Shown here piece by piece: positions 10,130 to 50,533 of a stretch of 64,000 nt of DNA (positions within the stretch are counted from its first letter, which is position 1; every line of letters begins with the position of its first letter). Made by a program: the position numbers and the translations under genes. The notes below the pieces were generated by a model. The model was not told the origin of the DNA. It made no database searches and saw only the letters and a list, made by a program, of their open reading frames with translations. Origin of the DNA: a virus; IMG/VR virus record IMGVR_UViG_3300021963_000084, positions 18,460 to 82,459 of that record; one strand, written 5' to 3'.

Positions 10130-10133
10130 TAAA

Positions 10134-10141
10134 TATAAATA
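10134..10141 (+). promoter_or_regulatory. T4-type late promoter TATAAATA
   Basis: Exact gp55 consensus in the gp7-gp8 intergenic gap. Confidence 0.85.
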
Positions 10142-10170
10142 ACTCAAAGGAAAATTAAGTCTTTAATAAC

Positions 10171-21851: not shown

Positions 21852-23033
21852 ATGAGTAAGAAAAAATTATTGTGGATTGGTGACTGTGTTATTCCGAGTG
21901 GATTTGGCAGAGTATCAGAATCCATTCTGACTAGAATTCATTCAAAATATGATACCACAGTAATGGGTATCAATTATTTTGGTCAAAAACACGAGTTTCC
22001 ATTTAAAATTTTCGCCGCTAGTACTAAAGGTGGTGCATCAGATCCTTATGGATTCAATTATGTTGAAGAACTTTATAATGCTATTAAACCAGATATCATT
22101 GTAGCATTCAATGATGTTTGGATTATTAATATGTATTGGCAAAAACTTAAGGCATATAAAGAATCTGATGAATTTAAGTGGATTAATTATTTCCCTGTAG
22201 ATGGGGGCGGTTGGTTTGAACCAGTCGTAAAATGGATGGAGGAAACAGATCTTTCTGTTACATACACTAATTATGCAAAAAACGTAATTCTTGAAGCTGG
22301 TTATGAAGGTAAAATTGAAACCTTAGAGCACGGTGTTGACACGCAAACTTTTTTTCCTATGGACAAAAAGCAATGCCGAGGTATTATTGGCAAAATGCAA
22401 GATGATGATTTCATTGTATTCAATGGCAATCGTAATCAACCACGCAAAAGAATTGATTTAACTATTATGGCATTTGCCAGGTTTGCGGTTGACAAACCAG
22501 ATGCTAAATTATACCTACATATGGGTGTTAAGGATTGTGGATGGGACATTGTACCTCTTTTCAATACTGAAATGAAGAAGAATGGTCTAGACCCACAAGG
22601 AAGACTATATCTTTCTGGTTTGGAAATGACTCCTGAAAAAAATGCAATCACTCCAGAAGTTCTCAACATCATCTATAATTCAGTTGATGTTGGAGTAAAT
22701 ACTTCTGAAGGAGAAGGTTGGGGTCTTGTTCCTTTTGAGCACGCTGCAACTGGTTGTCCTCAAGTAGTTCCTAACTATGCTGCAAGTGCTGAATTGTTTA
22801 AGAATGCTGGTAGTTTAGTTGATATTGCTTTTATGGGTAAAGATGTTAACTACGGAATTGATAGAGCATATGTATCAGTAGAAGGAATAGTGGAAGAACT
22901 TAATAAACTTTATAATGACAAAAAACATTATGAATCTTGTTCCAAAAAATGTATGGCTCTAACTCAGAGACCAGAATATAAGTGGGACAATATCGCTAAA
23001 AAAATGAACAAGTACATCTCATCGGTAATTTAA
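21852..23033 (+). CDS. GT-B fold glycosyltransferase, family GT4 (Glycos_transf_1)
   Basis: N-terminal SGFGRV, NRNQPRKRID, and the EX7E motif EGWGLVPFE in DVGVNTSEGEGWGLVPFEHAATGCPQV. Confidence 0.9.
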   Translation: MSKKKLLWIGDCVIPSGFGRVSESILTRIHSKYDTTVMGINYFGQKHEFPFKIFAASTKGGASDPYGFNYVEELYNAIKPDIIVAFNDVWIINMYWQKLKAYKESDEFKWINYFPVDGGGWFEPVVKWMEETDLSVTYTNYAKNVILEAGYEGKIETLEHGVDTQTFFPMDKKQCRGIIGKMQDDDFIVFNGNRNQPRKRIDLTIMAFARFAVDKPDAKLYLHMGVKDCGWDIVPLFNTEMKKNGLDPQGRLYLSGLEMTPEKNAITPEVLNIIYNSVDVGVNTSEGEGWGLVPFEHAATGCPQVVPNYAASAELFKNAGSLVDIAFMGKDVNYGIDRAYVSVEGIVEELNKLYNDKKHYESCSKKCMALTQRPEYKWDNIAKKMNKYISSVI

Positions 23034-34714: not shown

Positions 34715-34903
34715 ATGACAACACAAGTACAATTCCGTAGAGGAACAACGGCACAACACGCCACGTTTACTGGTGCTCAAGGAGAGATTACAGTAGATAC
34801 CGACAAAAAAACAGCAATTGTACATGATGGTTCAACAGCTGGCGGAATTGAATTAGCCAGAGCGGATGGAGCGATTGCTTATTCCATCATTTTTGGATTG
34901 TGA
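34715..34903 (+). CDS. Stand-alone Mtd-N/hyaluronidase-N-like fibre anchor domain protein, 62 aa
   Basis: QVQFRRGTTAQH..FTGA.GEITVDTDK....HDG.T.GG motif; ends in hydrophobic AIAYSIIFGL. Confidence 0.75.
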   Translation: MTTQVQFRRGTTAQHATFTGAQGEITVDTDKKTAIVHDGSTAGGIELARADGAIAYSIIFGL

Positions 34904-34955: not shown

Positions 34956-37900
34956 ATGGCAAAGCAGTTATCTTATTACTACACTTTTACACCAGGCACA
35001 AACACTGTTGTAGTGAGTGGTAATGTTAACAGGAAAAGACTGTTACTGATTACCAACACCACAAGAAATGTAATCATTTATAATATGACCCAGCCATCGC
35101 TGGGTGCATCATCAATTACATATAATGATGCAACAAATGAAACTACAGTTGTACTTACATACAATTGTGGTGCTGCTGGAATGCTTTCCACAGACGTTCT
35201 TCAGATTTTCTCTGAACAAGACGCTGTAACATTCCAACCTGCAGATTGGTTAGTTGACCCTGTTAGCAAATTGCGTGTATCGCAACCTAACACTTTGATT
35301 GATACAGACTTTGAATATGGTCTTCAGTCAACCAAGTGGGAATCTCTGGAAAGAGTAAACAACATTCCAAGTTTCTATTCTTCCACAAACGACACTCCAC
35401 TTAGCAACATTACGAGTGTAACTACAAATGGCGGCAAGGAAGTTACGGTAACTACTTCTTCTGCTCACGGTCTGACCACTGGTACTCCAATTGATATTCG
35501 TGGTCTGAACTCAATCACTGCCGAGGGCACATATCTTATCCGTAAGACAACTGATTATCAATTCACCTTTGAGGTATCTGCTGTTCAGGGTGGTACTCCT
35601 TCTATACCTATTTCAATTTTAACACCTTATACTAATGTAATTGTTGGTCGTTTCTATGTCAACTCTTCACTGAATCTTGACAATAGCACAACAAACGAAG
35701 ATGGTCCTATTGCAACTGATTCTGTATCACCATCTAGTACATTAACCGCAACAACTTCGTATGACCACGGTTTTGTTGCTAATGCACCTTTTTATATCAC
35801 AAACAGCCTTGGTAATACTTCGGTAAACTTTGACCCCGCAGCGTTCTCGATCGGTGGTAATATTGAAGATAGAACTGCTTTCGACTTTGATACAGGTTTC
35901 TTTAACCCATATGAACCAGTACACGATGGTTGCACACTCAGAAGAATTCCTGCAACTCAACTTGATAACCGTTCAACAACCGCTGTAGTAACTGGTTCAA
36001 TTTCTGGTACTACTCTTAACGTTTCTGGTGTAACTTCAGGTACTCTTGTAATTGGACAAACAATTACTGGTGCTGGTGTATCACCAAACACTGTAATTAC
36101 TGCTCTTGGTACTGGGTCAGGTGGAACTGGTAGTTATACTGTTAATATTACTCAAACTGTATCTGCTGGTACTACTTTAACTGCAGCATTCCCAACTTCT
36201 GGTTTTATTACAATTCCTAATCATGGACTTGTAACTGGTGATGCAATTTGCTACATCGGTACAACTGGATCACAAAGTCCTCAAATTGCTGCTGTTACCG
36301 CTGGATACTTCCAGGTTTCTTCAGGTAATATTCCAACATATAATAATGGTCCTACAACGCCTGGTCAGAGCACAGACCTCTCCAGTTGGATGTATGCCGT
36401 TGTAATCGATAAGGATACCATTAGAGTAGCAACCAACCCTAAGGATGCTTATGATAGAACTAACCTGATTGTATTCACATCTTTTGGTGATTCTCCTAAC
36501 AATGATCTGTTCTTTGGTCTGATGGCTAAGAGAGGATTTGAAATTCAATCTTCAATCCTAAACGTTCAAACTATTGCTGGTTCTTCTGAAGTAAAAGTAA
36601 ATCTTGTTTCTGGTGCAACTTGCAGAAGTGTTGGCATTTACCCAGAAATGCAGGTAACACTTTCCGACACTGGCGTAAGTGCTATGGATGGTGTTTATGT
36701 AGTCAAGGAAAACCCAGTTACTGTAAACTTTGCAAATGAGATTTTCCAAGAGAATGACACTCATTTCATTATGGAAGGTCCTACAAATGCATCCGCAGCA
36801 CTTGTAACTCAGGCAGCTACTGCTACCTACACCTTATCAGCAACTGCTGCTGCAACTAATGTATTCCTGACACAAAATCTTCTTGAGAGAACTGTAACAC
36901 CAGCAAGCATCGTAACTGTTTCTGGTTCTACTGTAACAATTAGCGGTGTATCTAATCTTGGTGATGGTGCATCTCCTTATAGAGTTGGATCCACTGTAAG
37001 ATTTACAGCTCTCGGTGGTGTAATCACTGGTGCTACTGCGTATACTGATTATTATATCACTGCAGCAACTGCTATTGTTAATGGTGTATCGACACTGACA
37101 CTTTCTTCAACTCATCCAACAGTTGCTAACACAGCACTGACTCTTGCAACTACTGCAACAACTATTGCTACTTGCACGGGTTCGATTTCAGGTACTACTC
37201 TGACTGTAAGCGTAGCTCCAACTGGTGGTACTTTACAAATTGGTCAAGTAATTACTGGAACTGGTATTGCTCCTGGTACTACAATTGTAGGTTTTGGTAC
37301 TGGTAATGGTAGCAACACTGGTACTTACTATGTAAGTATTTCGCAAACAGTATCTTCTACTTCAATTACTGCATCAGTATTCTTGAAAGTTTACACTAGT
37401 GGTATTCGTACTCAGATTCACGCTGGTGCGCTTTCTTGGATGAACCACACCAGAATGTCGATACATGATTGGGGTTCAATCACTGCTAAGATGTTTACTC
37501 GTGAGTGCATCTCAAACAGTGGTTCGCAAATTTTCCTCAAGAATCACGGTCTGTTAAATGGTCAACCTCTGATGTATGTCGGTGGTGGTAACGGTTGGGC
37601 AATTAATAGTGGTACTCCATTCTTCTTCCAAGAATCTGCAAACCAGTCACCAATATACTTCGTTGAAACAGTTGACCGTGATAATATCAGAATTTGGACT
37701 TCTGAACCTGATGGTGTTGTAGGTGCTTATGGTGGTTATACAAATAACGCATCTTCAATTTCTGGTAACCAGCAAGTTACTCTGAGTCCAACAGGTTCAC
37801 CAAGCGTTCTGCCTGTAACTCACGCTGGTGGTGTATATCAACTGCACCCTGGATTTGTAGTTGCAAACTTCACTTCAGTTGCCAATACTCAAGGTCAAGG

Positions 37901-40900
37901 TAGAGATAAGGCTGTCGGTCTGTTCCAGAGAGTCCCTGCTTGGATGACTGAGAATGCTCCTGTCATTATCAAGACTAACGTAGGTGCTTCACTGCCCGTA
38001 TCTGATACAAGACAAGTTCCTGGTGGTTGGCCTTCAACTGGTCCAGCAATTTTCCAATCAACACCAAGTACTTGGGGTACTTCTGCTGCAAACAATACTG
38101 TTCAGTTTGCTAAGTACTTCGCAAGAGGTATTCAGGAAAACTATTCAGGTGAAACAACCTTCACTGGTACTATTGCAGGAACCACTCTTACAGTAACTGC
38201 AGTTCCCGTAAACTCAGTAATTCCAATTCAAGTTGGAATGGAACTGACTGGAACTGGAGTATCTGCTGGCACCGTAATCATTGCTGGTCCTACTGCAGGT
38301 GGAACTGGTACTTATACAGTTAATATTACTCAATCAGTAAGCAGCACCACAATTAGAGGTGTAACTAGAGCAGAATATACTCAGTCAGGTAGAGCAGAAT
38401 TTGCATTCTCGATTGCTCCTAATGGACAACCAATCAACTTTATTACTACAAGTGCTGTTCCTGGAACTTCAACTGCAACTGCTCCAGCAAGATTCTTCTG
38501 CACAAGAGTTGTAGATAATCCTTATGCTAACACATTCTTCCTGCCATTCCACGGTGGTACTGTAGGTAGAAGAACAACATATGTAACTGGTGCGTTCAAT
38601 ACTTCAACACCAGTAGGATCACAAGAAACAGAATCAATTCTTCCTATTGCAACTGGATTCCCAAGACCTGCATTTGATTACATCACCGACCGTAACAACA
38701 TTAGATGGCCAAGAACAAACCTTGTTCTGAACCACGGTGCTGCTCAAGGTACTACAACATTTACTGGTTTCGATTTCAATGGTACTGATTACGCTAACGT
38801 TGTTTCTAACAACACTCGTTATCAAATGGTTCCTCTGACAAATGATATCTTCAGAATTGCACAGGTAGGTACAAGACTACCAACAGGTTCACCTACAATT
38901 CAATTCACACTGAACCAGTCACAAACTCAGAGACAGAACCTTCAAACCGTTGCTAACGTAGGTACAAGAGCTACTAACGCTGCTGGTGGTCCTTTCGGTG
39001 TAACACAAGTCAAGTTCTTGACTTCAGCGACAACAAGAATTCCTAATGCTAATGCAAACAGAATTATTGTTCCTATTCAAAGACTGACATTCCTTGAGAA
39101 TGACCTTGTAAGATATGATACAAATGGTGGTTCCGAAGTTAATAGCTTGTTTGGTGGTCTGAACGGTCTTCAGAATGGTAGCGTTTATTCGATTAAAAAC
39201 GTTTCTCTCAAAACACCTATCGGAACTGGTCTTTCCACAAGCAGAAACTTCAGTTCAACTGCAACTGTATTAGAGTTTGATACTGCAAATACTGCAATTT
39301 ACACTGCTTCGATTGCAGGAAATGTAATGACAGTAACTGCTGTTTCTACTGGTGTACTCCAAGTTGGTGAATTAGTTACGGGAACTGGTGTTGCTGCTAA
39401 TACAATTATTACAGCATTTGGTACTGGAACTGGTGGTATCGGAACATACTCTGTATCTGGTCCAGCACAAACAGTATCATCAACCACAATGCAAGGTGTA
39501 TCCTCAGTAAGAGTTGAAGAAGGAGATATTCTTCAAATTGGTTCTCCTGATGGTGCTGCTGAGCAAGTTCTTGTAGGAGCTGCTGCAAGATTTACTGGTA
39601 GTATTTCAGGCACAACTCTCACAGTTTCTGGAGTAACAAGTGGCACTCTTGCTCTGAATCAAACACTGACTGGAACTGGCGTAACTCCTGGAACAGCAAT
39701 TGTTGCATTTGGTTCAGGTAGTGGTGGTGCTGGTACTTATACTGTTAATATTTCACAAACAGTTACTGCTGGAACTGTAATGGCTGCTTCAAGTGGAAGC
39801 AATTCAATTACAGTAACAAGAGGATTTGCTGGCACAACACCTCAGGCAATTCCAGAGGCTGCTCCAATCTTTAAAATTTTTGGTTCATTCCAACTATATT
39901 CACAGAACTTGCTGACACCAAGAAACTTCACTATTCTTGCTGCTTCGGTCAATGCAACAACCTTTATCTTTACCCAAACTGACCATAGACTGAATACTGG
40001 TGACCCAATCGTATACATCAGTGGTGGTGCTACTGATCCATTCACAGGTGCTGGACTTGCTGCAAACACTATTGTATTTGCAATCGTAATTGATGCAAAC
40101 ACATTCAGAATTGCACCTACTAAGGAAGCTGCATATTCAGACTTCTTCATAACAACCACTTCAACGAATACCAACTTCCTCACAGTTGTTGATACAATTC
40201 CTCTGAAGTCGTTCGTTAACCAGTCTGACTTTGACCACAAACTTCTCAACGTTTCTTCAACTGGTTCGATTGATGGTCCTTATACTGCTCAATCTGTAAC
40301 TTCAAGAACTCTGAGACTGAAGCCAACTAATAATTCTGCACTGACCATTAACCCAAGAGAACTGGTATTCAACCCAGCAAAAACAGTTAACCTGAAGACT
40401 GGTCAGTTCTACTATGGTGGTCACGGTTTCTCGCAAGGAACGAGAGTTATTTACTCCAGAAACGGAAACCGTTTTGAGATTGGTAGACAGAAGCAACTGG
40501 TATTTGAGATTTCTCAAATTAACAGAACAAACAATGTTGCTACAATTACATTTACTGCACCTCATGGTTTAACTGTTGGTCAAACTTATCAGGCACAATA
40601 CCTCAATGTAACGACTGCTGGACAAGATAGTTTTGATATTACAAATGCTCCTGTATTTGCAGTATCAGCAACTCAAGTTTCTTATGCGACTGGTCAAAAT
40701 GGGCAATCAGCAGTTTCTACACAATCTGGTACTGGAACAATGGCGCTGTGGGGCACACAACACCCAATGCAAGGATTTAATTGCCTATATGATATCGACC
40801 TTTCAACTGTTACTGCTCCTGTAGGAAATGGCACTACTGTAACCTACACCATTGCACATAACACAGTTCAAGAACCATTTGCTGTTGGCGATACTGTAAA

Positions 40901-43900
40901 CGTAACTGGTGTTCTGGTTGGAGGTAGCACCAATAATGGTTACAATGGTACATTCAAGGTTGTGTCTTCAACTTCAACCACTATCACAGTAACCAATAAT
41001 ACTACTGGCGGTTCTCCATCTGTTCCTGCAACTGGTTGTTCAATCAGAGGTGTTTATTTCGTAGTTCGTGAAAGTTTCGATATCTTCCGTCTCGCTAGAA
41101 CAAAAGCTCTGGCACACGCTGGCGTAGGTATTCAAAACTTCTCTTGCCAAGGTTCCAACTTTGTTGCTCCAGTTCAGTTTGCAATTAGCAATATTTCACG
41201 TTCAGCAAACGTTGCTACTGTAACAACAGCTGCTGCTCACAATCTTGTAGTTAATCAAACATATAATGCTTCTATCATTGAGATTACAACTGCTGGTTTC
41301 TTATCATTCGCAGCAAGCAACGTATACATTACTGTCACTGGTGCTAATACATTTACATATGCTAACGCTGGTACGAACGTAGGTTCAACTGCTGTTACTG
41401 GAACTCTGACAATTTCAGGTATTAATGAAGTTGGTCATAAACTGATTTCGTTCCAGGTAAGTGGTGAAACTCTGGGTAATGGTACTGCTACCGTTATCGC
41501 AAGAGACGCTATCCTGACTGACCCAACAACACTTGCAAACAGTGTAAGACCAGCGACCGATAGAATCTCTTTCGGTATAGTGAGTCACGGTTTCGTAACG
41601 GGTGACCGTATTACCTACCGTATTTGGGGTAATGGTTCTGTAATCCTTGGTCTGACTGATGGTGCTAATTATTTTATTAACAACACTGTCAACCCTAACA
41701 CGACTGGTCCTCTCTCAAGAGGTGGTGTTGAATCTGGACAAACTGCAACACAATTCTCACTTCACAATACTTGGGTAGGTGCTTATACCAACACTGATAT
41801 TGTTGATATTCTTGGTGGTGGTACTGGTGCTCTGCATCAGTTTAAGGTTTCCAACCCAACTCTGAGAGGCACTACATTCAAGGGTGAATGGTCATCTGGA
41901 GATAACTATGCTTACGGTGATGTTGTCACATATCGTGGCGAATACTTTATGTCAGTCAGCGGTGCTACTGCTCCTGGGCAAACAACATTTGTTGCTAACA
42001 CTGGTAGAACTCCTGTAGAAACTAGTGGTGCATATAACAACGCTTGGCAGCAGGTTCCTAACCTTCCTGCATACTCATCAAGATTCCTTGCACAGTATAA
42101 GGGTGGCGATACAGTTCTTCTGTCGAATACTGTTCCAACGAGAACTGTTCCTTTTGCTGCTAGTGTTACTACACCTTCACAAACAACTGGTGTATTCTCT
42201 GTTGCTAACCACAGACTTGCTACGGGTGATGGCGTAATTTACCGTACTAATAACCTCGGCGGTCAAAACTCCAACGGTTCATCACTGCAGAGCATTTATG
42301 CATCAGGTATTCCACAAAGACCACAAGCTGGTAACAGCGTAGTCTGGAATAACGATAAAATTCTTGCTGACAACATCTATTATGTAAACGTTCTCGATGA
42401 GAGCAACTTCACGCTGCACTTATCACTTGCTGGAGCACTTTCAGGTAACTCTTTCGTCGGCAACATTAACCAACCAACTGGTTTTGCGATTACCAACTTC
42501 ACAAGAGCTCAAATCAATAACATCTGGACTAACACTATTACTGCTACCTCTCACGGTCTCGTAGTTGGTGCAAGATATCTGGGTTCTGTTGATTGTGCAA
42601 CTGGTCCTGCTGACCCATCAACTTTTGACGCATACAACGTAGTTCTGACTGTAACTGATGCTAACACACTGACATATCCAAGTACAACCTCGGGTGCTGT
42701 CGGTTCAATTGCTGGTACTGGTACTCTGAGACTTATCGACGCAACTGATTTGGTAATTCCTGGTTCAGCATTCACTGGAACTGGTGTTCATAGACTTGAG
42801 AAACTTGAAGGTGTTGTTTATCAACCAACTGTTATCTCGGTTAACAGCGATAACGAAATGGTTATCACTGACCCACTGCCTTCCAGACAGATTGTATTCA
42901 ACCCACAAGGTTCATTCGTAAATCAGGCTGGTACAACTCAACCAATTGTTAACCTTGTAACTGGTGACATTTATCTGCCCAATCACGGTATTACTACTGG
43001 TACTAAACTGTACTATTCATCTGGTTTCCAGATTGGTACAAGACTTGGTAATACTCCTGTCGCTGCTGGTATTTACTTTGCAATTAAGATTAACGATGAT
43101 ATTATTAGACTTGGTGCAAGCACGACTGCTGATGCTGCAAACGCATTAGCAAACCTGTCTGCTGCTCTTCGTGGTCAAGCATTTGTTCCATCATCAACAG
43201 GTTCTGGTTTCAACCACTACCTCATCGTTGCTGCTCCTGCTGGTTCTACCAACATTCGTTATAACACAAGTGGTGATTTAATCAATGATACAACTGGCGC
43301 TGCAGCTGCTAACATTGGACCCGCAAACTCCAACTACTACAGCAACCAAGTTTCTGCTAACCTTCGTGACGGTGTACTTCAGGGTGTTAACTTCCTGTAT
43401 CCAACTCAAGTTTATACCAGAGCAAACTGTGTTAACGTTCATAGACCATTTGACGGTGGTGTAGAACTTCAGGCTGCTAAGGCACCTCAAGTTATGATTA
43501 CCAGACAGACACGTAAGTACTTCCGTTATCAGTCTGGTAAGGGTCTCCAGTATTCAACTGGTATCAACTTCAGTCCATCACTGGATGTTTCATACATCAC
43601 GCACGATGGTTCTACCTATGCAACTATTGTAACCAGAAAGGCACATAACCTTGTTGCTGGTAACAGAATTATGGTAGAGAACGTTGAAGTAACTTCAGGT
43701 GTAGCAACTCCATACACAAATCCATCAAACAATCTGTACTTCACAGTATTTGATGTAATTGACGAGTTTACCTTCCGTTATGCAACAAACGGAGTACCTG
43801 CAGACCTCGCTCCTTCAGGATTCCCAGATCTGTTTGTATACGAATGGTCTGGTGCTTCTGTTCGTGCTGGTATGTTTGATGACCAAAATGGTATGTACTT

Positions 43901-45047
43901 TGAATATGATGGTCAAAATCTGAATTGTGTAAGAAGATCTGCAACTGGTCAGTTAGGTGGTTTTGTAAGTGTAGCATTCAACAGCAATATTGTAACTGGT
44001 ACTAACACTAGATTTACTAAGCAACTTTCACCTGGACACTCAATCGTCATTCGTGGACAAACCTACAAGGTTGGTTCGGTTGTAAGTGATACTCAAATCA
44101 ACATCACTCCTGCATACAGAGGTGTTGCTGGTAGCAGAATCGTTATGACGAAAGTTGAAGAAGTCAGAGTTCCTCAATCACAGTGGAATATTGATAAGTG
44201 TGATGGAACAGGAATTAATGGATTCCACCTGAATATTCACAGAATGCAGATGGCATACATTGATTACTCCTGGTATGGTGCTGGTAAGGTACGTTTCGGA
44301 TTTAAGGATACTGATGGTCGTGTATTCTACTGCCACGAGTTTGTACATAACAACAAGAAAGTTGAAGCATACCTCCGTTCTGGTAACCTTCCCGCTCGTT
44401 ATGAAATTGAAAATGGTATTAACCCAACCTACTCACCATCGCTCTATCACTGGGGTGCTTCGGTAATTATGGATGGCGTATTTGAGGATGACAAGGCATA
44501 CCTGTTCACCGCTGCTTCAGGTTCCGCTGGTTCTGACATTATTACAGTTCCTCAGTCTCTCGCAGGAACAGTTGTTCCAATTCTTTCACTGAGATTAGCA
44601 CCTGCTGTTGATAGTTCTCTCTCTGGTTCACTTGGAAGCAGAGACTTAATCAACCGAATGACTGTTAAACCTAACTCTTGCGGTCTGGTTATTACTAACG
44701 CAGCAAGCAGAGCTGCTTCGGTTCGTCTGATTCTCAATGGCAACCTTTCACAATCTGCTTATTTTAGCGGTTATGGTTCACCATCACTGTGTCAAGTAAT
44801 TAAGCACACTGGTCAGGCACAAGATACTATCACTGGCGGTACGATTGTATTTGAATTCCGTGCTGCTGCTGGCGCTCCTATCACTCAGGACCTAGGACAG
44901 CTGATTGAACTTGGTAACTCGATTATGGGCGGTGACTTTGTATATCCAAACGGTCCAGATATTCTGACTCTGGCAATCGTTCCTACTGATACTGGTGCAG
45001 TAACAACCGTCACTGCACGTCTCACCTGGACTGAATCGCAGGCATAA
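34956..45047 (+). CDS. Giant fibre/adhesin-like virion protein, 3363 aa
   Basis: Many H(G/N/R)L..G..I beta modules, five ~65-aa TGSISGTTL repeats, one CBM5/12-like motif, and a C-terminal core shared with 48504-49778. Confidence 0.8.
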
Positions 45048-45069
45048 TTCTCTCAAACATAAGATACAG

Positions 45070-45095
45070 AGAGGGGGGCAACCCCCTCTTTTTTT
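45070..45095 (+). terminator. Rho-independent terminator with GCAA (GNRA) loop
   Basis: AGAGGGGG-GCAA-CCCCCTCT followed by a T-run. Confidence 0.9.
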
Positions 45096-45102
45096 ATAAA
45101 TA
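45095..45102 (+). promoter_or_regulatory. Late promoter TATAAATA fused to the terminator T-tract
   Basis: Exact consensus upstream of gp13. Confidence 0.85.
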
Positions 45103-45125
45103 ACTTTATAGGAATATTATAACTA

Positions 45126-45920
45126 ATGGCAAGACCCGCTTCTAGGCAGCAATTAATAGACTATTGTTTGCGTAAACTAGGATTTCCTGTACTTGAAATT
45201 AACGTAGATGACGACCAAATTGAAGATGCAATTGATGATGCAATTCAATTTTTTCAAGAACGTCATTTTGACGGTAGCATTCGCACCATTTTAAAATTAA
45301 GAATTACACCAGAAATAGTATCATCTGCGAAAACCAATACTACAGTATCAGGAACTACATACTTAGAACAAAATAATTACATCACAATTCCAGACCATAT
45401 CCTTGGAATCACTCAAGTTTATGCTCAGGACAACAGTGTATCTTCAGTATCAGGAAATATTTTTAGTATCAAATATCAGTTATTTTTAAATGATTTCTAT
45501 AACTTCGGTTCAATGGAAATCCTTAATTACTATATGATTAAGAGTTATCTTGAAACTCTTGACTGGGTTATCTCAAACTTTAAACCTATTCGTTTTAATA
45601 AAAGAGAAAATAAACTTTGGTTAGATACTGATTTCGACCAACTTACATCAGGTAATTATCTATTAATTGATTGTTATAGAATGCTTGACCCAACACAAAG
45701 CACTGAAGTATGGAATGATGTTTGGATGAAGAAGTATGCCACAGCACTCATCAAACGTCAATGGGGTCAGAACTTAATCAAGTTCAGAAATGTCTCTCTG
45801 CCTGGAGGAATTACATTAAATGGCAGAGAAATTTATGAAGATGCAGAAGCAGAAATTGAAAAGATTATGGCAGAATTCCAACTGGCAGCAGAACTTCCAC
45901 CTCTGGATATGATTGGATAA
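45126..45920 (+). CDS. gp13: Neck protein gp13
   Basis: MARPASRQQLIDYCLRKLG.PVLEINVDDDQ; KRQWGQNLIKF..V.LPGG.TLNG. Confidence 0.95.
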   Translation: MARPASRQQLIDYCLRKLGFPVLEINVDDDQIEDAIDDAIQFFQERHFDGSIRTILKLRITPEIVSSAKTNTTVSGTTYLEQNNYITIPDHILGITQVYAQDNSVSSVSGNIFSIKYQLFLNDFYNFGSMEILNYYMIKSYLETLDWVISNFKPIRFNKRENKLWLDTDFDQLTSGNYLLIDCYRMLDPTQSTEVWNDVWMKKYATALIKRQWGQNLIKFRNVSLPGGITLNGREIYEDAEAEIEKIMAEFQLAAELPPLDMIG

Positions 45921-47020
45921 TGACACGAAATCTTTACTTCACTCAAGGAACAAAGGGTGAACAAAATTTAATACACGACTTGATTGAAGAACAAATCAAG
46001 ATGTATGGCATTGAAGTATTTTATATTCCAAGAAAAGTTTATGAAGATAAACTTTGGAATGATATTTACTATTCACAGTACAGAGATAGTTATCTCATTG
46101 AAATGTATCTGGAGAATTTTGAGAACTTTGGCGGCAAAGGAGATATGCTTTCCAAGTTTGGATTGCGTGTTACTGATGAAATATCTTTAACTGTATCACG
46201 CCGTAGATGGAAAGATTTTGTTGATTTAGCGACAAATAAAATTGTTGCAGGTAGACCTAATGATGGTGATTTAATTTTCTTTCCATTGAATAATACAGTA
46301 TTTGAAATCAAGTATGTAGAAAATCAGAAACCTTTCTACCAACTAAATAGCTTATACGTCTATACAATGACGTGTGAGATTTTTGAATATGGCGACAGCA
46401 TATTTGAAACTGGAAACCAGAAGATTGATAATCTTGAACAAGAATCTGGAGTATTCCCCATCTATCTTTATAGTGGTGGAACAGGTAATTTTAGTCCTGA
46501 TGAAACAGTAGTTGGTACAAGATTTACTGCTACTGCCTCTGGTACATTAGTTGGTAGTTATCTTGGAACTATTATTGTTACAAATCCTGGTGCTGGGTAT
46601 GTTACTCCGCCATCGGTAGCAATATATGACGCTCAAGGTAACTTTGTTGACAATGGTTCTTGCACAATTTCTGGAGGATTAGTTACATCAGTAACTGGTC
46701 CAAATGCAGTTTATACTTTCTCTGGTGTTCCTAGAATTGTTATTGGTTCTTCACCCAAAAACTATACTGCTAAAGCAGCAGAATGGAATCCAACAGCAAT
46801 CGTTCTTGACGTTGCTTACAGCACTGGAAACTTTGCTCCGAATGAACAAATCATCGGTCAAACATCTGGTGCTAAGTGGAGAGTTAGAGAATATGATACT
46901 CTTGATATGACTGATAGTTATTCAGAAAATAGAGTAATTGAAAATAATGGAGATTTAATTATTGACTTTACTGAAAGCAATCCTTTCGGTGAATTCGGAG
47001 ACATTCAAGGTAGCTTCTAA
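45920..47020 (+). CDS. gp14: Neck protein gp14 with C-terminal beta insertions
   Basis: EQIKMYG..YIPR, LSKFGL, RPNDGDLIFFP, DFTESNPFG. Confidence 0.93.
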   Translation: MTRNLYFTQGTKGEQNLIHDLIEEQIKMYGIEVFYIPRKVYEDKLWNDIYYSQYRDSYLIEMYLENFENFGGKGDMLSKFGLRVTDEISLTVSRRRWKDFVDLATNKIVAGRPNDGDLIFFPLNNTVFEIKYVENQKPFYQLNSLYVYTMTCEIFEYGDSIFETGNQKIDNLEQESGVFPIYLYSGGTGNFSPDETVVGTRFTATASGTLVGSYLGTIIVTNPGAGYVTPPSVAIYDAQGNFVDNGSCTISGGLVTSVTGPNAVYTFSGVPRIVIGSSPKNYTAKAAEWNPTAIVLDVAYSTGNFAPNEQIIGQTSGAKWRVREYDTLDMTDSYSENRVIENNGDLIIDFTESNPFGEFGDIQGSF

Positions 47021-47826
47021 TGTTAGGAACTTATTTTTATCACAAAATTATTCGTAAAACAGTTACCACATTTGGTACGCTGTTTAATAATATTCAACTT
47101 AATACATTTGATGAGCAAGGAAACTTTGTAAAACAAGAAAAGGTTCCTTTGGCATATGGACCTGCTCAAAAGTTTTTAGCAAGATTGCAGCAGGCACCAG
47201 ACTTAGATAGAAAATTTACCATCACAATTCCAAGAATGTCATTTGAAATGACAGGAATTTCTTATGATGGTAGTAGAAAAGTTCCCCCTACACAATTAAA
47301 TAGAGCACTTTCTGATAACAGTGGTTCTACTAACAGAAAGCAGTATATGCCAGTTCCTTATAATGTAGAATTTGAATTAACAGTTATTGCAAAAACTCAG
47401 GATGATGGTCTTCAGATTGTGGAGCAAATCTTACCATTCTTTCAACCACAATTTACAGTCACGATTAATCTTATTCCTGAGATGGAAGAAAGTCGTGATG
47501 TTCCCATCATTTTAAACAGCGTTGATTATAATGATGATTATGAAGGTGATTATAGTACAAGAAGATATATAACTTGGACACTTCGTTTTACTGCAAAAAC
47601 TTATCTGTACGGTCCCGTCACTGCTGGCAATATTATCAAAAAATCTATCGCTAATATCAACATTGGTGATAAGGTTACTAATGCCAGAGTTCTTAAGTAT
47701 CAAGTTCAACCAGAAGCAATTACTGATCAGGATGGAGATAATGATGTAGATGCTGTCGATACAGCACTACTTACAGCAGAAGATGATTTTGGATTTAATG
47801 AGGGTATAACATACTATGGACCATAA
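47020..47826 (+). CDS. gp15: Tail sheath stabilizer/terminator gp15
   Basis: YFYHKIIRK..FGTLFNNI, VPLAYGP.QKFLARL, QIVEQILPFFQP. Confidence 0.95.
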   Translation: MLGTYFYHKIIRKTVTTFGTLFNNIQLNTFDEQGNFVKQEKVPLAYGPAQKFLARLQQAPDLDRKFTITIPRMSFEMTGISYDGSRKVPPTQLNRALSDNSGSTNRKQYMPVPYNVEFELTVIAKTQDDGLQIVEQILPFFQPQFTVTINLIPEMEESRDVPIILNSVDYNDDYEGDYSTRRYITWTLRFTAKTYLYGPVTAGNIIKKSIANINIGDKVTNARVLKYQVQPEAITDQDGDNDVDAVDTALLTAEDDFGFNEGITYYGP

Positions 47827-48238
47827 ATTTCAAGAAAATATGGAAGATCTTTTTGATATTGAACCTGTGGAAACTGAAGTAGTTTCCACTAAACCTCCTG
47901 TTCAGAATGAAGAGGATATTGATGCTGACTATAAGTATGCTCGTACAGAACTTTATGAATTAATTCAGAAAGGTCAAGTTGCAATTGATGAACTGATTGA
48001 AGTTGCTCGTAGTAGCAATCATCCTAGAGCATATGAAGTTGCTTTTCAGGGTATTAAAAATGTTGCTGACATCACTGATAAGTTAGCAGACCTTCAAAAG
48101 AAAATGAAGGATATTAAAACTGAAGATAAAAAATCTCCCACTACTGTTAATAATACTATGTTTGTTGGTTCCACTGCTGACCTTGCAAAGATGCTTAAGA
48201 ACGCATCAAAAAACCTAAATAATCAAAAAGGCAAATAA
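47816..48238 (+). CDS. gp16: Terminase small subunit gp16
   Basis: DYKYAR, HPRAYEV, NNTMFVGSTADL. Confidence 0.93.
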   Translation: MDHKFQENMEDLFDIEPVETEVVSTKPPVQNEEDIDADYKYARTELYELIQKGQVAIDELIEVARSSNHPRAYEVAFQGIKNVADITDKLADLQKKMKDIKTEDKKSPTTVNNTMFVGSTADLAKMLKNASKNLNNQKGK

Positions 48239-48240
48239 AA

Positions 48241-48501
48241 ATGAGAATCAGATTACTCGGAAGCGAGGCAGCACTATCTACAAGTAGCGGCAACACTTTT
48301 GGAAATGCAACATTAGTAAGATTAGTTAATCCCACTGGTTCTGGTGTTGTAGTAACTCTCAATGAATCTGATGATTCTACTGCTGTGGGTACATTTACTA
48401 TTCCTGCTGGTCAATCAGAATTGCTTGAAAAAGAACCAGAACAAAGAGTTCGTGCCGCAAGCACCAGTGTTCTTGGAGTTAAAGTAGGTTATACTCACTA
48501 A
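48241..48501 (+). CDS. Small beta-rich hypothetical (possible virion) protein, 86 aa
   Basis: ATLVRLVN...GTFTIPAG..LLEK...KVGYT; tight packing after gp16. Confidence 0.7.
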   Translation: MRIRLLGSEAALSTSSGNTFGNATLVRLVNPTGSGVVVTLNESDDSTAVGTFTIPAGQSELLEKEPEQRVRAASTSVLGVKVGYTH

Positions 48502-48503
48502 TC

Positions 48504-49778
48504 ATGGCACAGTATAGTAAGCATTATAACGATTATCTAGAGCAACAAAAGACCAACTTTGAAGTTGTGATGCTTGCCGATAACTACGGCAACATCAACG
48601 CTGGAACTGGTGGTACGGCAACTGATGCTTTTGGCAGAAGTAGAGTTGCAGATCCAGTAACATTATTTGATAGTCAGCATCGTTACGAAGAAAATTATCA
48701 TTGGAATACTGCTTTAACTGGTGCTGCTAATAAGCAATATAATATTCATGAAAGTTCTATATCGCTTGTAGTATCTGGTGCTCTCAATGACAAAGTAGTT
48801 AGAGAAACCAAAAGAGTATTTCCATATCAACCAGGAAAGTCTCTGCTGATTATGAATTCATTTGCTTTCAATCCTCAACTTTCTGGTCTTCGTCAGAGAA
48901 TTGGATACTTTGGTACAGATAACGGTATCTATTTTGAGAATGATGGAACAGGAAACTATCTTGTTCTTCGTAGAAAACTCACATCTGGTGCTGCTACTGA
49001 AGTAAGAGTAGCACAGGCAAATTGGAATACCGATAAGTTTGATGGAGCTGGTCCAACATTAAGAACGCTTGATATCTCAAAAGCAAATATCTTCTGGTTA
49101 GATATTGAGTGGTTAGGTGTTGGTGATGTTCGCTGTGGATTTGTTGTTGATGGAAGAATGGCAATCGCCCATACTTTCCATAACGATAATGTCAATCCAT
49201 CTGCTTATATGACCACTGCTATTCTACCACTAAGATTGGAGATTGAAAATACTGCTGCCACTGGCGTGTCTTCAACGATGAAGCAGATTTGTAACACAGT
49301 TATTTCCGAAGGTGGTTACGAGAAGAAAGTAAGAAAATCTCATGTAAGTAGAGATAGTAATATCGCTGCTTCAACATCGGCACTAACTCCTATAATCTCA
49401 TTCAGGTTGAACTCGGCATATAAAGATGCCGTGATTCTCCCAGAATCATTCCACGTATTTTCTAGCGTACAAGGAAATTTTGAAATTGTTGTTGTTCGTG
49501 GTGGTACATTAAATAATAATACTTGGGTCACTCAAGGAAAAGTTGATTACAATACTGCTGCAACAACTATTTCTGGAGGTACAAACACAACTCATTTTTA
49601 TCTTTCAACTACACAACAATCTGGTGGAGTTGGAGCTGGTGAAGATGGATATAACTGGGACACTCAACTCACTAGAGATTTAAATGGTACGACAGAAATT
49701 GTTACTCTTACTGCTAGATCTTTAGATGCTACTGATAAAAATATTCGTGGATCAATCTCATACTACGATCTGACATGA
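48504..49778 (+). CDS. Virion structural protein, 424 aa; compact paralogue of the 3363-aa giant
   Basis: DAFGRSRV..P.TLFD, RETKRVFPYQPGKS, NGIYFENDG, DIEWLGVGDVRCGF. Confidence 0.75.
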   Translation: MAQYSKHYNDYLEQQKTNFEVVMLADNYGNINAGTGGTATDAFGRSRVADPVTLFDSQHRYEENYHWNTALTGAANKQYNIHESSISLVVSGALNDKVVRETKRVFPYQPGKSLLIMNSFAFNPQLSGLRQRIGYFGTDNGIYFENDGTGNYLVLRRKLTSGAATEVRVAQANWNTDKFDGAGPTLRTLDISKANIFWLDIEWLGVGDVRCGFVVDGRMAIAHTFHNDNVNPSAYMTTAILPLRLEIENTAATGVSSTMKQICNTVISEGGYEKKVRKSHVSRDSNIAASTSALTPIISFRLNSAYKDAVILPESFHVFSSVQGNFEIVVVRGGTLNNNTWVTQGKVDYNTAATTISGGTNTTHFYLSTTQQSGGVGAGEDGYNWDTQLTRDLNGTTEIVTLTARSLDATDKNIRGSISYYDLT

Positions 49779-50533
49779 AAAAGAAAGTACCTACCGAAAA
49801 AGAAATCGCACAGAAGCACGGTGTATCTGTTGATTATGTTGTGCGTCAAGCGGAGGTTGGTTCAACTGTAGAACGTGAGCACGTTACTACACACGAAGAA
49901 GCTTATGGTATTGCTCTGCAGCATATTGATGAGTTCCCAGATTATTACAAGCATCTTTTAGATATGGAAAAGAAACTTAAGAAAGAATGGAGGAACGGAA
50001 AAATGAAAAACGTCCAAGAAAATCATATCGATGTAGCGATGGGTAGAGAACTTGATGATGAAGGTTCAATGATTATGAATCAACTTGATGAACTTGAGCA
50101 CTATTGCGACATGCTTCGTCAAGTTGTTACAAGTCCAACTATGCAAGTTCCTGCATGGGTTCAATCTAAAATTACATTAGCAACAGATTATCTTAACTCT
50201 GCTGCGATGTATATGTCAAGTAAAAATGAAGAGGTTCAACCTGAACTAAATAAACTATCCTTTAAGGAGTTTATCGAACTTGACGAGGGGGCTGCCTGGA
50301 CAAAAAAGTCTGGTAAGAGTTCCAGTGGGGGACTCAATGAGAAAGGAAGAAAATCTTACGAAAGAGAGAATCCTGGAAGCGACCTTAAAGCACCTTCAAA
50401 GAAGGTTGGAAATCCCCGCAGGGCATCATTCTGCGCTAGAATGAAAGGAATGAAAAAGAAACTTACATCAAAGAAAACTGCGAGAGACCCTGATTCAAGA
50501 ATCAATAAATCATTAAGAGCTTGGAACTGTTAG
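49775..50533 (+). CDS. Three-module hypothetical protein (DUF5661-like N-terminus, DUF6321-like basic C-terminus); possible internal head protein
   Basis: G..VE.EH....A..IALQH..E.PDYY; EGSM...L....PAWVQSKIT.A.DY; GGLNEKGR...RRASFCARM..SRINKSLRAWNC. Confidence 0.7.
   Translation: MKKKVPTEKEIAQKHGVSVDYVVRQAEVGSTVEREHVTTHEEAYGIALQHIDEFPDYYKHLLDMEKKLKKEWRNGKMKNVQENHIDVAMGRELDDEGSMIMNQLDELEHYCDMLRQVVTSPTMQVPAWVQSKITLATDYLNSAAMYMSSKNEEVQPELNKLSFKEFIELDEGAAWTKKSGKSSSGGLNEKGRKSYERENPGSDLKAPSKKVGNPRRASFCARMKGMKKKLTSKKTARDPDSRINKSLRAWNC

Follow-up and report, generated by a model that had tools for sequence, protein, structure and literature searches.

A 64,000-nucleotide stretch of a virus record (IMG/VR IMGVR_UViG_3300021963_000084, positions 18,460–82,459; the window) carries two genes whose products, we conclude, are probably virion-surface proteins built on one scaffold, a jelly roll followed by a β-sandwich. 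The scaffold is contiguous in the smaller protein (424 amino acids) and, in the larger (3363 amino acids; the giant), is split by an array of about 2,689 residues. The two proteins show colinear homology and a common fold; among relatives of the giant, the two ends co-occur while the insert between them varies in length. The idea that one phage has both a minimal and an expanded form of the same scaffold, which an initial sequence-only reading had put forward, is borne out by profile, reverse-profile and fold evidence.

Two genes in a structural module

The window corresponds to the structural module of a T4-like cyanomyovirus: both genes are flanked by homologues of gp6-like, gp13, gp14, gp15, gp16, gp17, gp18, gp19, gp20 and gp23 genes, with the same gene order as in cyanophage S-RIM12. 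The giant is a member of the S-PM2 p173 'virion structural protein' family (phrog_5838 profile, E = 2.3e-173) and matches phrog_1645 in three stretches (E = 1.1e-50), profile positions 176–439 of 440 corresponding to its residues 3067–3361. Its near-full-length relatives measure 2837–3400 amino acids. The small protein is a full-length member of the compact family phrog_1645 (residues 1–420 on profile positions 1–436 of 440) and is 44–45% identical to the best phage records. GenBank uses 'virion structural protein' both for S-PM2 p173 and for several small-family homologues. With moderate confidence, we regard both proteins as carbohydrate-binding proteins of the virion surface. The parts of the two proteins, all on the + strand, are as follows.

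34956–45047, +, giant open reading frame (P0001; 3363 residues), from the open-reading-frame list and translation, with phrog_5838 and phrog_1645 matches
34956–35240, +, giant residues 1–95, N-terminal β domain specific to the giant family and without counterpart in the small protein (equivalent in S-PM2 p173 at pLDDT of about 87–95)
35241–35357, +, giant residues 96–134, N motif (ending ....KWE), read as jelly-roll strands 1–2 (HMM positions 34–69)
35358–43421, +, giant residues 135–2822, insert 1 of about 2,689 residues (gap between HMM pieces; internal repeats)
43422–43550, +, giant residues 2823–2865, jelly-roll piece (HMM 71–113, i-E = 9.5e-5)
43551–43853, +, giant residues 2866–2966, insert 2, a small H.L-type β domain (gap from HMM 113 to 127)
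43854–43946, +, giant residues 2967–2997, jelly-roll piece (HMM 127–157, i-E = 9.4e-7)
43947–44138, +, giant residues 2998–3061, insert 3 of about 65 residues (HMM 157, then 156 after 64 residues)
44139–44621, +, giant residues 3062–3222, remaining jelly roll (HMM 156–307, i-E = 1.1e-30)
44622–45047, +, giant residues 3223–3363 and stop, C-terminal β-sandwich common to the small protein (phrog_1645 match)
48504–49778, +, small open reading frame (P0002; 424 residues), full-length phrog_1645 match (E = 2.6e-111): N-terminal peptide (residues 1–35), contiguous jelly roll (about 36–275) and C-terminal β-sandwich (276–424)

Co-occurrence of the two genes was surveyed over 10 kb downstream of each giant-type gene, and a compact paralogue may exist elsewhere in these genomes. 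Of the 40 related loci that extend 6 kb or more downstream, 5 pair the giant-type gene with the small gene within that range; four of these are among the 13 giant-type loci that show gp13 to gp17, and the fifth carrier (L004) stops before gp17.

Homology and insertion points

The sequence-only reading listed seven colinear motif pairs, and all are present in both translations where it had placed them. The first two motifs lie 60 residues apart in the small protein (residues 40 and 100) versus 2,750 residues in the giant (VDPVSKLRV... from residue 100, nucleotide 35253; second motif from residue 2850, nucleotide 43503). Pairwise alignment is significant (BLASTP of small against giant, E = 2e-19; about 30% identity over the core), although the profile alignment shows that the first ~65 residues of the match are misaligned; BLAST also misaligns the insert 3 stretch. 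A hidden Markov model (HMM) of 117 small-family proteins matches the giant in four colinear pieces, and gave no piece at i-E ≤ 0.01 in the nine other window reading frames of at least 500 residues, which include three other giants (2545–3021 residues). The N-motif piece (HMM 34–69 against giant residues 96–132; i-E = 0.0017) is weak alone, its 3.4 bits being reached somewhere in 2 of 200 shuffles of the first 2,800 residues of the giant. In the reverse direction, an HMM of giant-family residues 88–150 scored at least 5 bits in 149/266 of the compact family (at least 10 bits in 36) and in none of 266 shuffled and 266 reversed controls. This match begins 57–70 residues upstream of R.T[KR]....YQ.GK in all 108 hits for which that pattern was located; the remaining 41 of the 149 have no match to the pattern. 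Direct comparison of the two family alignments by hhalign gave P = 2.8e-4 (probability 41%).

The giant had been described as the 424-residue protein with roughly 2,700 residues inserted into its core. What holds is that the whole scaffold is colinear, with strands 1–2 split off; the giant is not literally the small protein, as core identity is about 30% and the two belong to separate families (phrog_5838 versus phrog_1645) and clades. A core-domain tree places 68 giant-type and 169 compact sequences on opposite sides with support of 1.0 (giant-type rows, 68 of 200: P0001, P0391 and every third of the rest; compact rows, all 149 representatives and every sixth of P0002–P0121). Judged from these sequences, the small protein and the giant are old paralogues; the ~30% identity and separate clades rule out that the giant arose from a recent copy of the small gene. 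The picture of a single insertion is also only partly right: the insert of about 2,689 residues is there, but the HMM gaps mark three insertion points (about 2,689, 88 and 65 residues).

Insert 1 is an array of repeated small β-rich domains, including five copies of a ~65-residue module. The repeats were detected by BLAST of fragments against the whole protein; self-BLAST of the entire giant returned no off-diagonal matches. Insert 2 adds about 88 residues beyond the length of the small protein at that site. Two of the same sites are occupied in the compact family: P0175 has a 73-residue insert at the insert 3 site, and P0160 and P0261 have inteins at the insert 2 site, exactly at YQPGK/S (slashes mark the junctions). 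Inteins were recognized by C, S or A at position 1, a terminal HN followed by S, T or C, and a homing-endonuclease domain; the ends read YQPGK/CRLA...EHN/SLR in P0261 and YQPGK/ALRN...THN/SLQ in P0160 (LAGLIDADG_3, E = 3.3e-8). The translation of insert 2 in the giant lacks intein-type ends.

Family survey

The giant combines, in one protein, an N block with IDTDFEY and a C module ending in ...W.E.QA, as in the phrog_5838/S-PM2 p173 family. The N-terminal block stands at the N terminus in 200 of 242 proteins examined, and in 199 of those 200 the C module reaches the C terminus. Forty-two of 241 retrieved homologues are without the N block—many visibly fragments at contig edges, some starting with M and belonging to clusters seen on long contigs. 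The N motif is present in 51 of 51 giant-type IMG/VR reading frames whose 5′ end falls inside the locus; residues D101, V103, K105, I115–Y121, Q124, K127, W128 and E129 are invariant across 77 sequences, as are R2850, Q2851 and Y2855–G2863 in the jelly-roll piece after insert 1. Insert 1 is hypervariable in length: across 181 proteins, the spacing between flanking motifs ranges from 222 residues (S-PM2 p173) to 2,768. From IDTDFEY to the C-module motif, the distance is 2,735 residues in the giant and 47 in the small protein. S-PM2 p173, the shortest listed member of its family, already has about 165 residues at the insert 1 site. In the compact family, the N motif follows N-terminal extensions of up to 955 residues and always adjoins the module.

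At 50% identity (E ≤ 0.001), 7,872 representatives carry the compact scaffold, and the N block of the giant occurs in 534 clusters at 90% identity (1,849–5,886 residues). Pfam searches with both proteins and the ends of the giant gave nothing above threshold, with only sub-threshold noise at E ≤ 0.1, and the small-family profile had no match among PDB sequences at E ≤ 10. The ESM Atlas returned unnamed viral clusters only, with weak leads to SO2946-like_C (15% of one cluster) and E1_FCCH (30–56% of others). Literature searches within one collection of papers found no account of p173-type proteins or of a split-module architecture; passages from PMC9910659, PMC3037559 and PMC12801897 contain nothing on these genes.

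Fold prediction

An AlphaFold2 (AF2) model of the small protein (pLDDT 80.9) has a GH16/ConA-like jelly roll and a C-terminal β-sandwich, in line with the lectin or jelly-roll similarity that had been anticipated. Residues ~47–273 match the ConA-like lectin/glucanase fold at Z 13–17.9, with GH16 enzymes, legume-type lectins and calnexin among the matches; the best VIA match is the GH16 structure 6t2o (Z 17.9, rmsd 2.8, 191 residues aligned, model residues 52–270), and the 50 matches listed include many GH16 enzymes as well as lectin-like and lyase jelly rolls. For the giant, the ConA-like fold is predicted from this model and one of S-PM2 p173. A two-chain prediction with the ends of the giant (residues 88–150 with 2810–3363) gave ipSAE of 0.61, 0.73 and 0.82 (median 0.73), the best of three controls scoring 0.00; the score expresses model confidence and the input was an alignment that we built. 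According to the tool, 58 of 80 solved complexes reach its mark, compared with 2 of 110 mismatched pairs. Contacts agreed to at least 67% between runs, with partner pLDDT of at least 56, and those of lowest predicted error place residues 127–133 antiparallel to 2846–2853, mirroring strands 67–72 and 97–102 of the small-protein model. We read the N motif of the giant as jelly-roll strands 1–2, with a predicted docking onto the remainder of the fold.

When S-PM2 p173 was modelled by AF2 as a single chain, the 50 jelly-roll alignments listed, many of them to GH16 structures (5dzg, Z 14.6), all start at residues 90–128, at the N motif, and end at 678–689. This model (mean pLDDT 61) was used only through VIA ranges, which give the first and last aligned residue, and its underlying alignment misplaces the last jelly-roll strand (MAFFT 667–701 versus BLAST 886 onward).

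A quite improbable alternative makes the giant an ordinary fibre, anchored to the virion at its N terminus and bearing a head at the C-terminal end of a shaft; the N motif would then be an attachment or oligomerization peptide common to both families, outside the jelly roll. Phage fibres typically have conserved N termini and variable middles. The motif is also modelled with low confidence in both monomers (pLDDT 41–53 at residues 41–60 of the small protein; below 50 at residues 111–129 of S-PM2 p173), and its forward HMM score is just 3.4 bits. Against this, the motif immediately precedes strand 3 in the small protein, where GH16 alignments begin within it (residues 46–55); those of the S-PM2 model begin at it as well. 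The two-chain prediction pairs it with the RQTRK strand (controls, 0.00), and it stays next to the module in the compact family however long the N-terminal extension.

Possible gene splits in relatives

In the Actinomycetia phage DSL-LC01, the N motif lies on an 825-residue reading frame (N-motif HMM, 106.5 bits, residues 19–75) and the C module, starting at HMM position 78, on the next one (2853 residues); at the junction, TAA is followed by GGAG and then by ATG 9 nt later. DSL-LC01 is listed as a metagenome-assembled genome (PMC10611076), so the split could be an assembly frameshift; as far as its sequence goes, a natural split into adjacent genes is possible. In L037, which also seems to be split, the frames overlap in a way that suggests a frameshift.

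The DSL-LC01 arrangement also bears on a reading in trans, in which the N motif of one chain would fill in the jelly roll of another and the giant would form head-to-tail dimers, rings or chains with the scaffold as intermolecular connector. This reading, which we consider unlikely, draws on the two adjacent reading frames, on the success of a prediction that used separate chains and on the sterically demanding return of a 2,689-residue array to its start that a single chain would seem to require. That prediction, however, is blind to the difference between cis and trans; DSL-LC01 may owe its split to an assembly frameshift; L037 looks like a frameshift; and a split gene makes assembly in trans possible but does not establish it for single-chain proteins.

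Binding or catalysis

In the sequence-only reading, the two versions were conjectured to be alternative receptor-binding heads. Yet in both families the jelly roll ranks with the best-conserved regions, which would be unusual for a host-specific tip; it is the insert that is hypervariable, and within the flanks surveyed the small gene is uncommon. Many charged residues are invariant in both families and could fit an enzyme rather than a lectin. GH16 enzymes carry the catalytic signature E-x-D-x(0,1)-E on a cleft strand. Look-alike strands, placed in register by sequence reading, are FWLDIEW in the small protein (residues 197–203) and AYIDYSW in the giant (residues 3100–3106); judged from the sequence rather than from a residue-level superposition, the first glutamate appears to be absent from both and the second from the giant. 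The scaffold thus appears to lack the GH16 catalytic glutamates, and is therefore more likely to bind carbohydrate or to be purely structural than to act as a GH16-type hydrolase.

A rather unlikely reading is that the scaffold is nevertheless an enzyme opening the host envelope, for instance a polysaccharide lyase or a non-classical glycanase. Enzymes head its list of fold matches (GH16, with PL7 and PL20 lyases at Z 11–14), the polar residues R, Y-Q-x-G-K, D, R, H, N, Y, R and E are invariant in both families, and the inteins of two compact-family proteins sit exactly at YQPGK/S; inteins usually occupy functionally critical sites. On the other hand, the GH16-like strand reads W-L-D-I-E (small) and Y-I-D-Y-S (giant) in place of E-x-D-x-E, no Pfam glycosidase or lyase family and no solved structure at E ≤ 10 is matched by sequence, and lectins match the fold equally well (for example, Emp47p, Z 14.9). 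Binding or a structural role remains our preferred reading.

Proposed architecture

In the architecture that we propose, the 424-residue protein would consist of a short N-terminal peptide and then the scaffold alone. The chain of the giant would form its N-terminal β domain, lay down jelly-roll strands 1–2 (residues 96–134), leave the fold for about 2,689 residues of tandem small β domains and re-enter at residue 2823 to complete the jelly roll and sandwich, with two further small domains housed in later loops. The jelly roll would thereby clasp both ends of a length-variable domain array, and the array, the part that varies between phages, may be what meets the host surface. A bolder and more tentative version, to which we give somewhat less than even odds, holds that the jelly roll acts as a molecular clasp: strands 1–2 and the rest would recognize each other across thousands of residues, and in some phages across two polypeptides, so that adhesion domains would be arranged in closed loops of adjustable length or, in the split variants, in two-armed assemblies. 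If true, such a fibre would depart from the usual design of anchor, shaft and tip, and the clasp would be a natural case of split-domain complementation; should it work in trans, as the two DSL-LC01 genes suggest, it would supply a natural split-protein pair.

These results provide a domain map for a large family labelled until now 'virion structural protein' or 'hypothetical' in databases, with no Pfam family for either window protein. We read the conserved N and C termini of these fibre-like giants as halves of one fold, not as anchor and tip, which would change how the variable middle is interpreted in host-range studies of marine cyanophages. The split module explains why local alignment tools break p173-type proteins into seemingly unrelated pieces, and makes the giant a testable case of extreme domain nesting.

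Comparison with known systems

The closest named counterpart is S-PM2 p173 (CAF34238.1, 1095 amino acids, phrog_5838). Its residues 1–204 correspond to residues 1–205 of the giant (37% identity), its C module (307–643 and 886–1095) to 2818–3158 and 3161–3363, and the pieces follow the same order relative to the small-family HMM. In contrast to the giant, p173 has about 165 rather than about 2,689 residues at insert 1 and carries an extra insert of ~240 residues (648–885); its gene lies near psbA, whereas that of the giant is upstream of gp13. With the compact family (phrog_1645, which includes the 'virion structural protein' of cyanophages S-RIM12 and S-RIM8 and a protein of Puniceispirillum phage HMO-2011), the giant has the whole scaffold in common, but it differs in having that scaffold broken at three loops, a different N-terminal domain in front and a separate clade. 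The scaffold resembles the GH16/ConA-like lectin/glucanase fold in its β-jelly-roll (6t2o, Z 17.9; 5dzg, Z 14.6), whereas membership of the GH16 enzyme family finds no match at the sequence level, either in Pfam or among PDB sequences. A further parallel is offered by phage proteins that house domains in their loops, such as 'evolved' Dit proteins with carbohydrate-binding modules; PDB 5ly8 is among the fold matches of the small-protein model. The shared principle is that a loop of a conserved virion scaffold displays an adhesion-type domain; unlike those proteins, the giant has kilo-residue multi-domain arrays, ~12-fold length variation among relatives and another scaffold, and its insert cuts off the first two strands from the remainder of the fold.

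Two forms of one scaffold

The phage encodes one scaffold in two forms, one of which is discontinuous and holds a hypervariable nested array, with both ends always together. Translation confirmed the two open reading frames of the sequence-only reading—the giant (3363 aa, 34956–45047 (+); S-PM2 p173 family, phrog_5838) and the small protein (424 aa, 48504–49778 (+); compact family, phrog_1645)—and found each motif quoted from them at its given place. Their pairwise alignment was significant (BLASTP E 2e-19), the high-scoring pair being partly misaligned (small-protein aa 90–155 were placed on giant aa 3004–3061). A profile HMM of 117 small-family proteins matched the giant in four colinear pieces:

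HMM 34–69: giant aa 96–132 (i-E 0.0017, 3.4 bits)
HMM 71–113: giant aa 2823–2865
HMM 127–157: giant aa 2967–2997
HMM 156–307: giant aa 3062–3222

PHROG profile 1645 extends the match to giant aa 3361, so the C-terminal β-sandwich is also common to both proteins. Together, these matches revise the view of the giant as the small protein with about 2,700 aa inserted: the large insert stands, and the scaffold is interrupted three times, not once (~2,689, 88 and 65 aa; inserts 1–3). Besides these inserts, the giant differs in its N-terminal domain (~95 aa). The HMM gave no piece at i-E ≤ 0.01 in any of the nine other window ORFs of at least 500 aa, three other giants included. An unrooted core-domain tree set 68 giant-type proteins apart from 169 compact proteins (support 1.0), which makes the interrupted architecture the mark of one clade.

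Predicted fold

The model of the small protein (mean pLDDT 80.9) forms a jelly roll at residues ~47–273. Its best structural match is the GH16 entry 6t2o (Z 17.9, rmsd 2.8, 191 aligned), and lectin-like domains also match (for example, Emp47p, Z 14.9); the suggested lectin or jelly-roll similarity is thus borne out by Foldseek at the level of broad class. The whole two-domain arrangement recurs in predicted viral structures from uncultured tailed phages, haloarchaeal tailed viruses and mimivirid-like giant viruses, and sequence searches with the scaffold returned no Pfam family and no sequence-level match to any solved structure. Its role is probably carbohydrate binding or solely structural. 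That it is an enzyme is a live alternative, given the GH16 match; a GH16-type mechanism appears unlikely, because the small protein has WLDIE, and the giant YIDYS, in the strand that by sequence reading looks like the GH16 catalytic signature. Invariant residues of the small protein include R100, K112, D200, R210 and H223.

Genomic setting

The parent contig (82,459 bp) is ~45% complete according to CheckV, and the GC content of the window is 29–44%. Judging from PHROG profile matches, the window carries a T4-like cyanomyovirus structural module, given here together with ORFs that adjoin the giant and small genes:

354–2198 and 10171–11736: baseplate wedge proteins
34715–34903 (+): 62-aa ORF directly 5′ of the giant, a free-standing Mtd_N domain (PF18454, E 5.2e-18; phrog_9648 'tail protein')
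45126 and 45920: head–tail adaptor and head closure proteins (equivalents in the S-RIM12 record are named neck proteins)
47020: tail sheath stabilizer
47816 and 50715: small and large terminase
48241–48501 (+): 86-aa ORF 5′ of the small gene (phrog_19805 match)
49775–50533 (+): 252-aa protein 3′ of the small gene (DUF5661 and DUF6321)
52441, 54426, 55071 and 58856: tail sheath, tail tube, portal and major head protein

The Mtd_N ORF has a hydrophobic tail and could serve as an adaptor for the giant. A glycosyltransferase-like gene (21852–23033 (+); phrog_2170, E 4.9e-50) lies amid the fibre genes. DNA similarity to cultured phages is limited to one 200-bp stretch (80–90% identity). Gene order agrees with that of cyanophage S-RIM12, in which a 441-aa 'virion structural protein' likewise lies between the small and large terminase genes, but with three further genes after the former and seven before the latter. 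From this position and the database names of homologues, both the giant and the small protein are probably virion-surface proteins.

Homology and docking of the N motif

The critical link is the N motif (giant aa 96–134), for which forward evidence of homology is weak: its score of 3.4 bits was reached by 2 of 200 shuffles of the giant's first 2,800 aa. The motif is the most conserved portion of the N block, the conserved N terminus of the giant family, with D101, V103, K105, I115–Y121, Q124, K127, W128 and E129 invariant in 77 sequences (31–40% identity to the giant). S-PM2 p173 independently showed the same colinear four-piece pattern (N piece i-E 7e-4), and profile–profile comparison of the giant and compact families gave P 2.8e-4 (probability 41%). 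In the reverse direction, with an HMM of giant-family residues 88–150, 149 of the 266 compact-family proteins reached at least 5 bits (36 of them at least 10 bits), as did none of 266 shuffled or 266 reversed controls (maxima, 2.2 and 3.6 bits). The match started 57–70 aa upstream of the downstream motif in all 108 hits in which that motif could be located by pattern; in the remaining 41, it had no pattern match. We regard N-motif homology between the families as established by these comparisons.

Structure prediction places the N motif as strands 1–2 of the jelly roll, which the C module (giant aa 2823–3363) would complete. When giant aa 88–150 and 2810–3363 were predicted as two chains, each with its slice of alignment A3, ipSAE values were 0.61, 0.73 and 0.82 (median, 0.73) and the best of three controls reached 0.00; in calibration, the mark is exceeded by 58 of 80 solved complexes and by 2 of 110 mismatched pairs, counts that apply only approximately to an author-supplied alignment such as this one. 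The runs had at least 67% of contacts in common, with partner pLDDT of at least 56. The tightest predicted contacts run antiparallel between aa 127–133 and aa 2846–2853, the homologues of strands 67–72 and 97–102 in the small-protein model; others fall on further jelly-roll strands (aa 3103/3105, 3123, 3147 and 3166–3176). When the natural homologue S-PM2 p173 (1095 aa; N motif, residues 104–133) was modelled with AF2 as one chain, all 50 listed jelly-roll alignments of the model, many to GH16, started at residues 90–128 and ended at 678–689, these ranges giving alignment ends only. That model is poor (pLDDT 61; N motif below 50), its alignment (A2) puts the last strand in the wrong place, and the N-motif region of the small-protein model has pLDDT of only 41–53. 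The predicted topology is supported, short of proof.

Family survey and split genes

In S-PM2, S-RIM44, S-BM3, S-CAM1 and others, tblastn located the giant's first 200 and last 564 aa within one gene at very different spacing. The N block occurred at E ≤ 1e-5 in 534 collection proteins of 1,849–5,886 aa. It was N-terminal in 200 of 242 proteins examined, a set comprising the giant and three search returns (two of them the best 120 only) and hence not an unbiased sample; the C module extended to the C terminus in 199 of these 200 (the exception is P0405). Across 181 measured proteins, the motif-to-motif distance, for which a survey had been suggested, ranged from 222 aa (S-PM2 p173) to 2,768 aa (median, 1,121), placing the window's giant (2,735 aa) near the top. 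Among 79 related IMG/VR loci, the N motif was present in all 51 giant-type ORFs whose 5′ end lay inside the locus, and all 15 without it were truncated by a contig end. The N block was missing from 42 of 241 collection proteins, many of them obvious fragments and a few (P0329, P0335 and P0369) on long contigs. Loci L025–L027 (ORF 12813–18614) and L040 and L057 (ORF 12611–18100) have a second N-motif giant ORF of 1830–1934 aa just 3′ of the first, with the motif ~273–288 residues inside the stop-to-stop reading frame.

Among phage records, that of Actinomycetia phage DSL-LC01 is closest to P0335. This phage encodes a 2853-aa protein that carries the C module, starting at HMM position 78, but lacks the N motif; the protein's annotation, 'ALK tyrosine kinase receptor', is surely a misnomer. 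A whole-record search found the motif in the immediately upstream gene (E 2.4e-21); this ORF encodes 825 aa, and behind its N motif (aa 19–75, 106.5 bits) come domains that share 44% identity with giant aa 99–293.

OQ999401.1 108221–119270: apparently split p173-type gene of DSL-LC01 (loci L082 and L084)

At the junction, TAA is followed by GGAG and then, after 9 nt, by ATG. If the split is real, the jelly-roll halves would be separate chains obliged to meet in trans; an assembly error is possible because the genome is described as metagenome-assembled (PMC10611076). In locus L037, a second apparent split of a giant-type gene, the N-motif and C-module ORFs (3039–9767 and 9578–11347) lie in overlapping frames, probably through a frameshift or assembly error.

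Insertions in both families

Insert 1 of the giant consists of repeated small β-rich units:

Giant aa ~347, 742, 1071, 1447 and 1548: five copies of a ~65-aa module ([10 protein letters not shown]...GTGSGG.G.Y.V)
Giant aa ~1850, 2075 and 2507: another repeat
Insert 1: several H-G-L/F-type units

Precomputed annotation gives E1_FCCH, End_beta_barrel or FG-GAP_2 Pfam hits in some giant relatives. The compact scaffold also tolerates insertion at other sites, being interrupted in 5 of 149 representatives, two of them in the C-terminal sandwich. P0175 (410 aa) carries a 73-aa insert (residues ~160–232) at the position of the giant's insert 3, a single copy of the ~65-aa module, which behaves as an insertable unit. 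Two others, P0160 (870 aa) and P0261 (854 aa), have inteins of ~335 and ~370 aa precisely at the K–S junction of the invariant YQPGKS motif; they run from ALRN to THN, with a LAGLIDADG_3 domain, and from CRLA to EHN, respectively. Inteins at this position in a family of virion structural proteins suggest that the site is critical for function.

Co-occurrence of the two versions

The compact gene is a presence/absence cassette, its slot flanked by gp16 and the 252-aa gene. It was present in 5 of the 40 related loci that extend at least 6 kb 3′ of the giant-type gene (L004, L013, L019, L028 and L056), including 4 of 13 that show gp13 to gp17 (L004 ends before gp17), and was absent from the two closest full-flank relatives (L006 and L007; 77–79% identity). 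In the p173-type cultured phages S-PM2, S-BM3, Syn1, S-RIM44 and S-H9-1, the top small-protein match reaches just 21–39% coverage in the rows listed, lies on features called virion structural or structural protein, and in S-PM2 and S-BM3 falls by coordinates inside the p173-type gene; hence, no compact copy was seen among the matches listed. S-RIM8 has the compact form alone. By these locus counts and cultured-phage matches, having both versions is a minority state.

The array is probably the part that varies and faces the host. The proposal that giant and small protein are alternative receptor-binding heads is possible but fits uneasily, because conservation across viruses of bacteria, archaea and eukaryotes is highest in the scaffold. 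Phage adhesion proteins with nested domains are already known, so the kind of arrangement is not new; new, as far as our literature searches reach, are its scale, an insertion point after strand 2 and before strand 3 of the fold, a length range of ~12-fold, the variant apparently encoded by two genes and the identification of a very large family that had no name.
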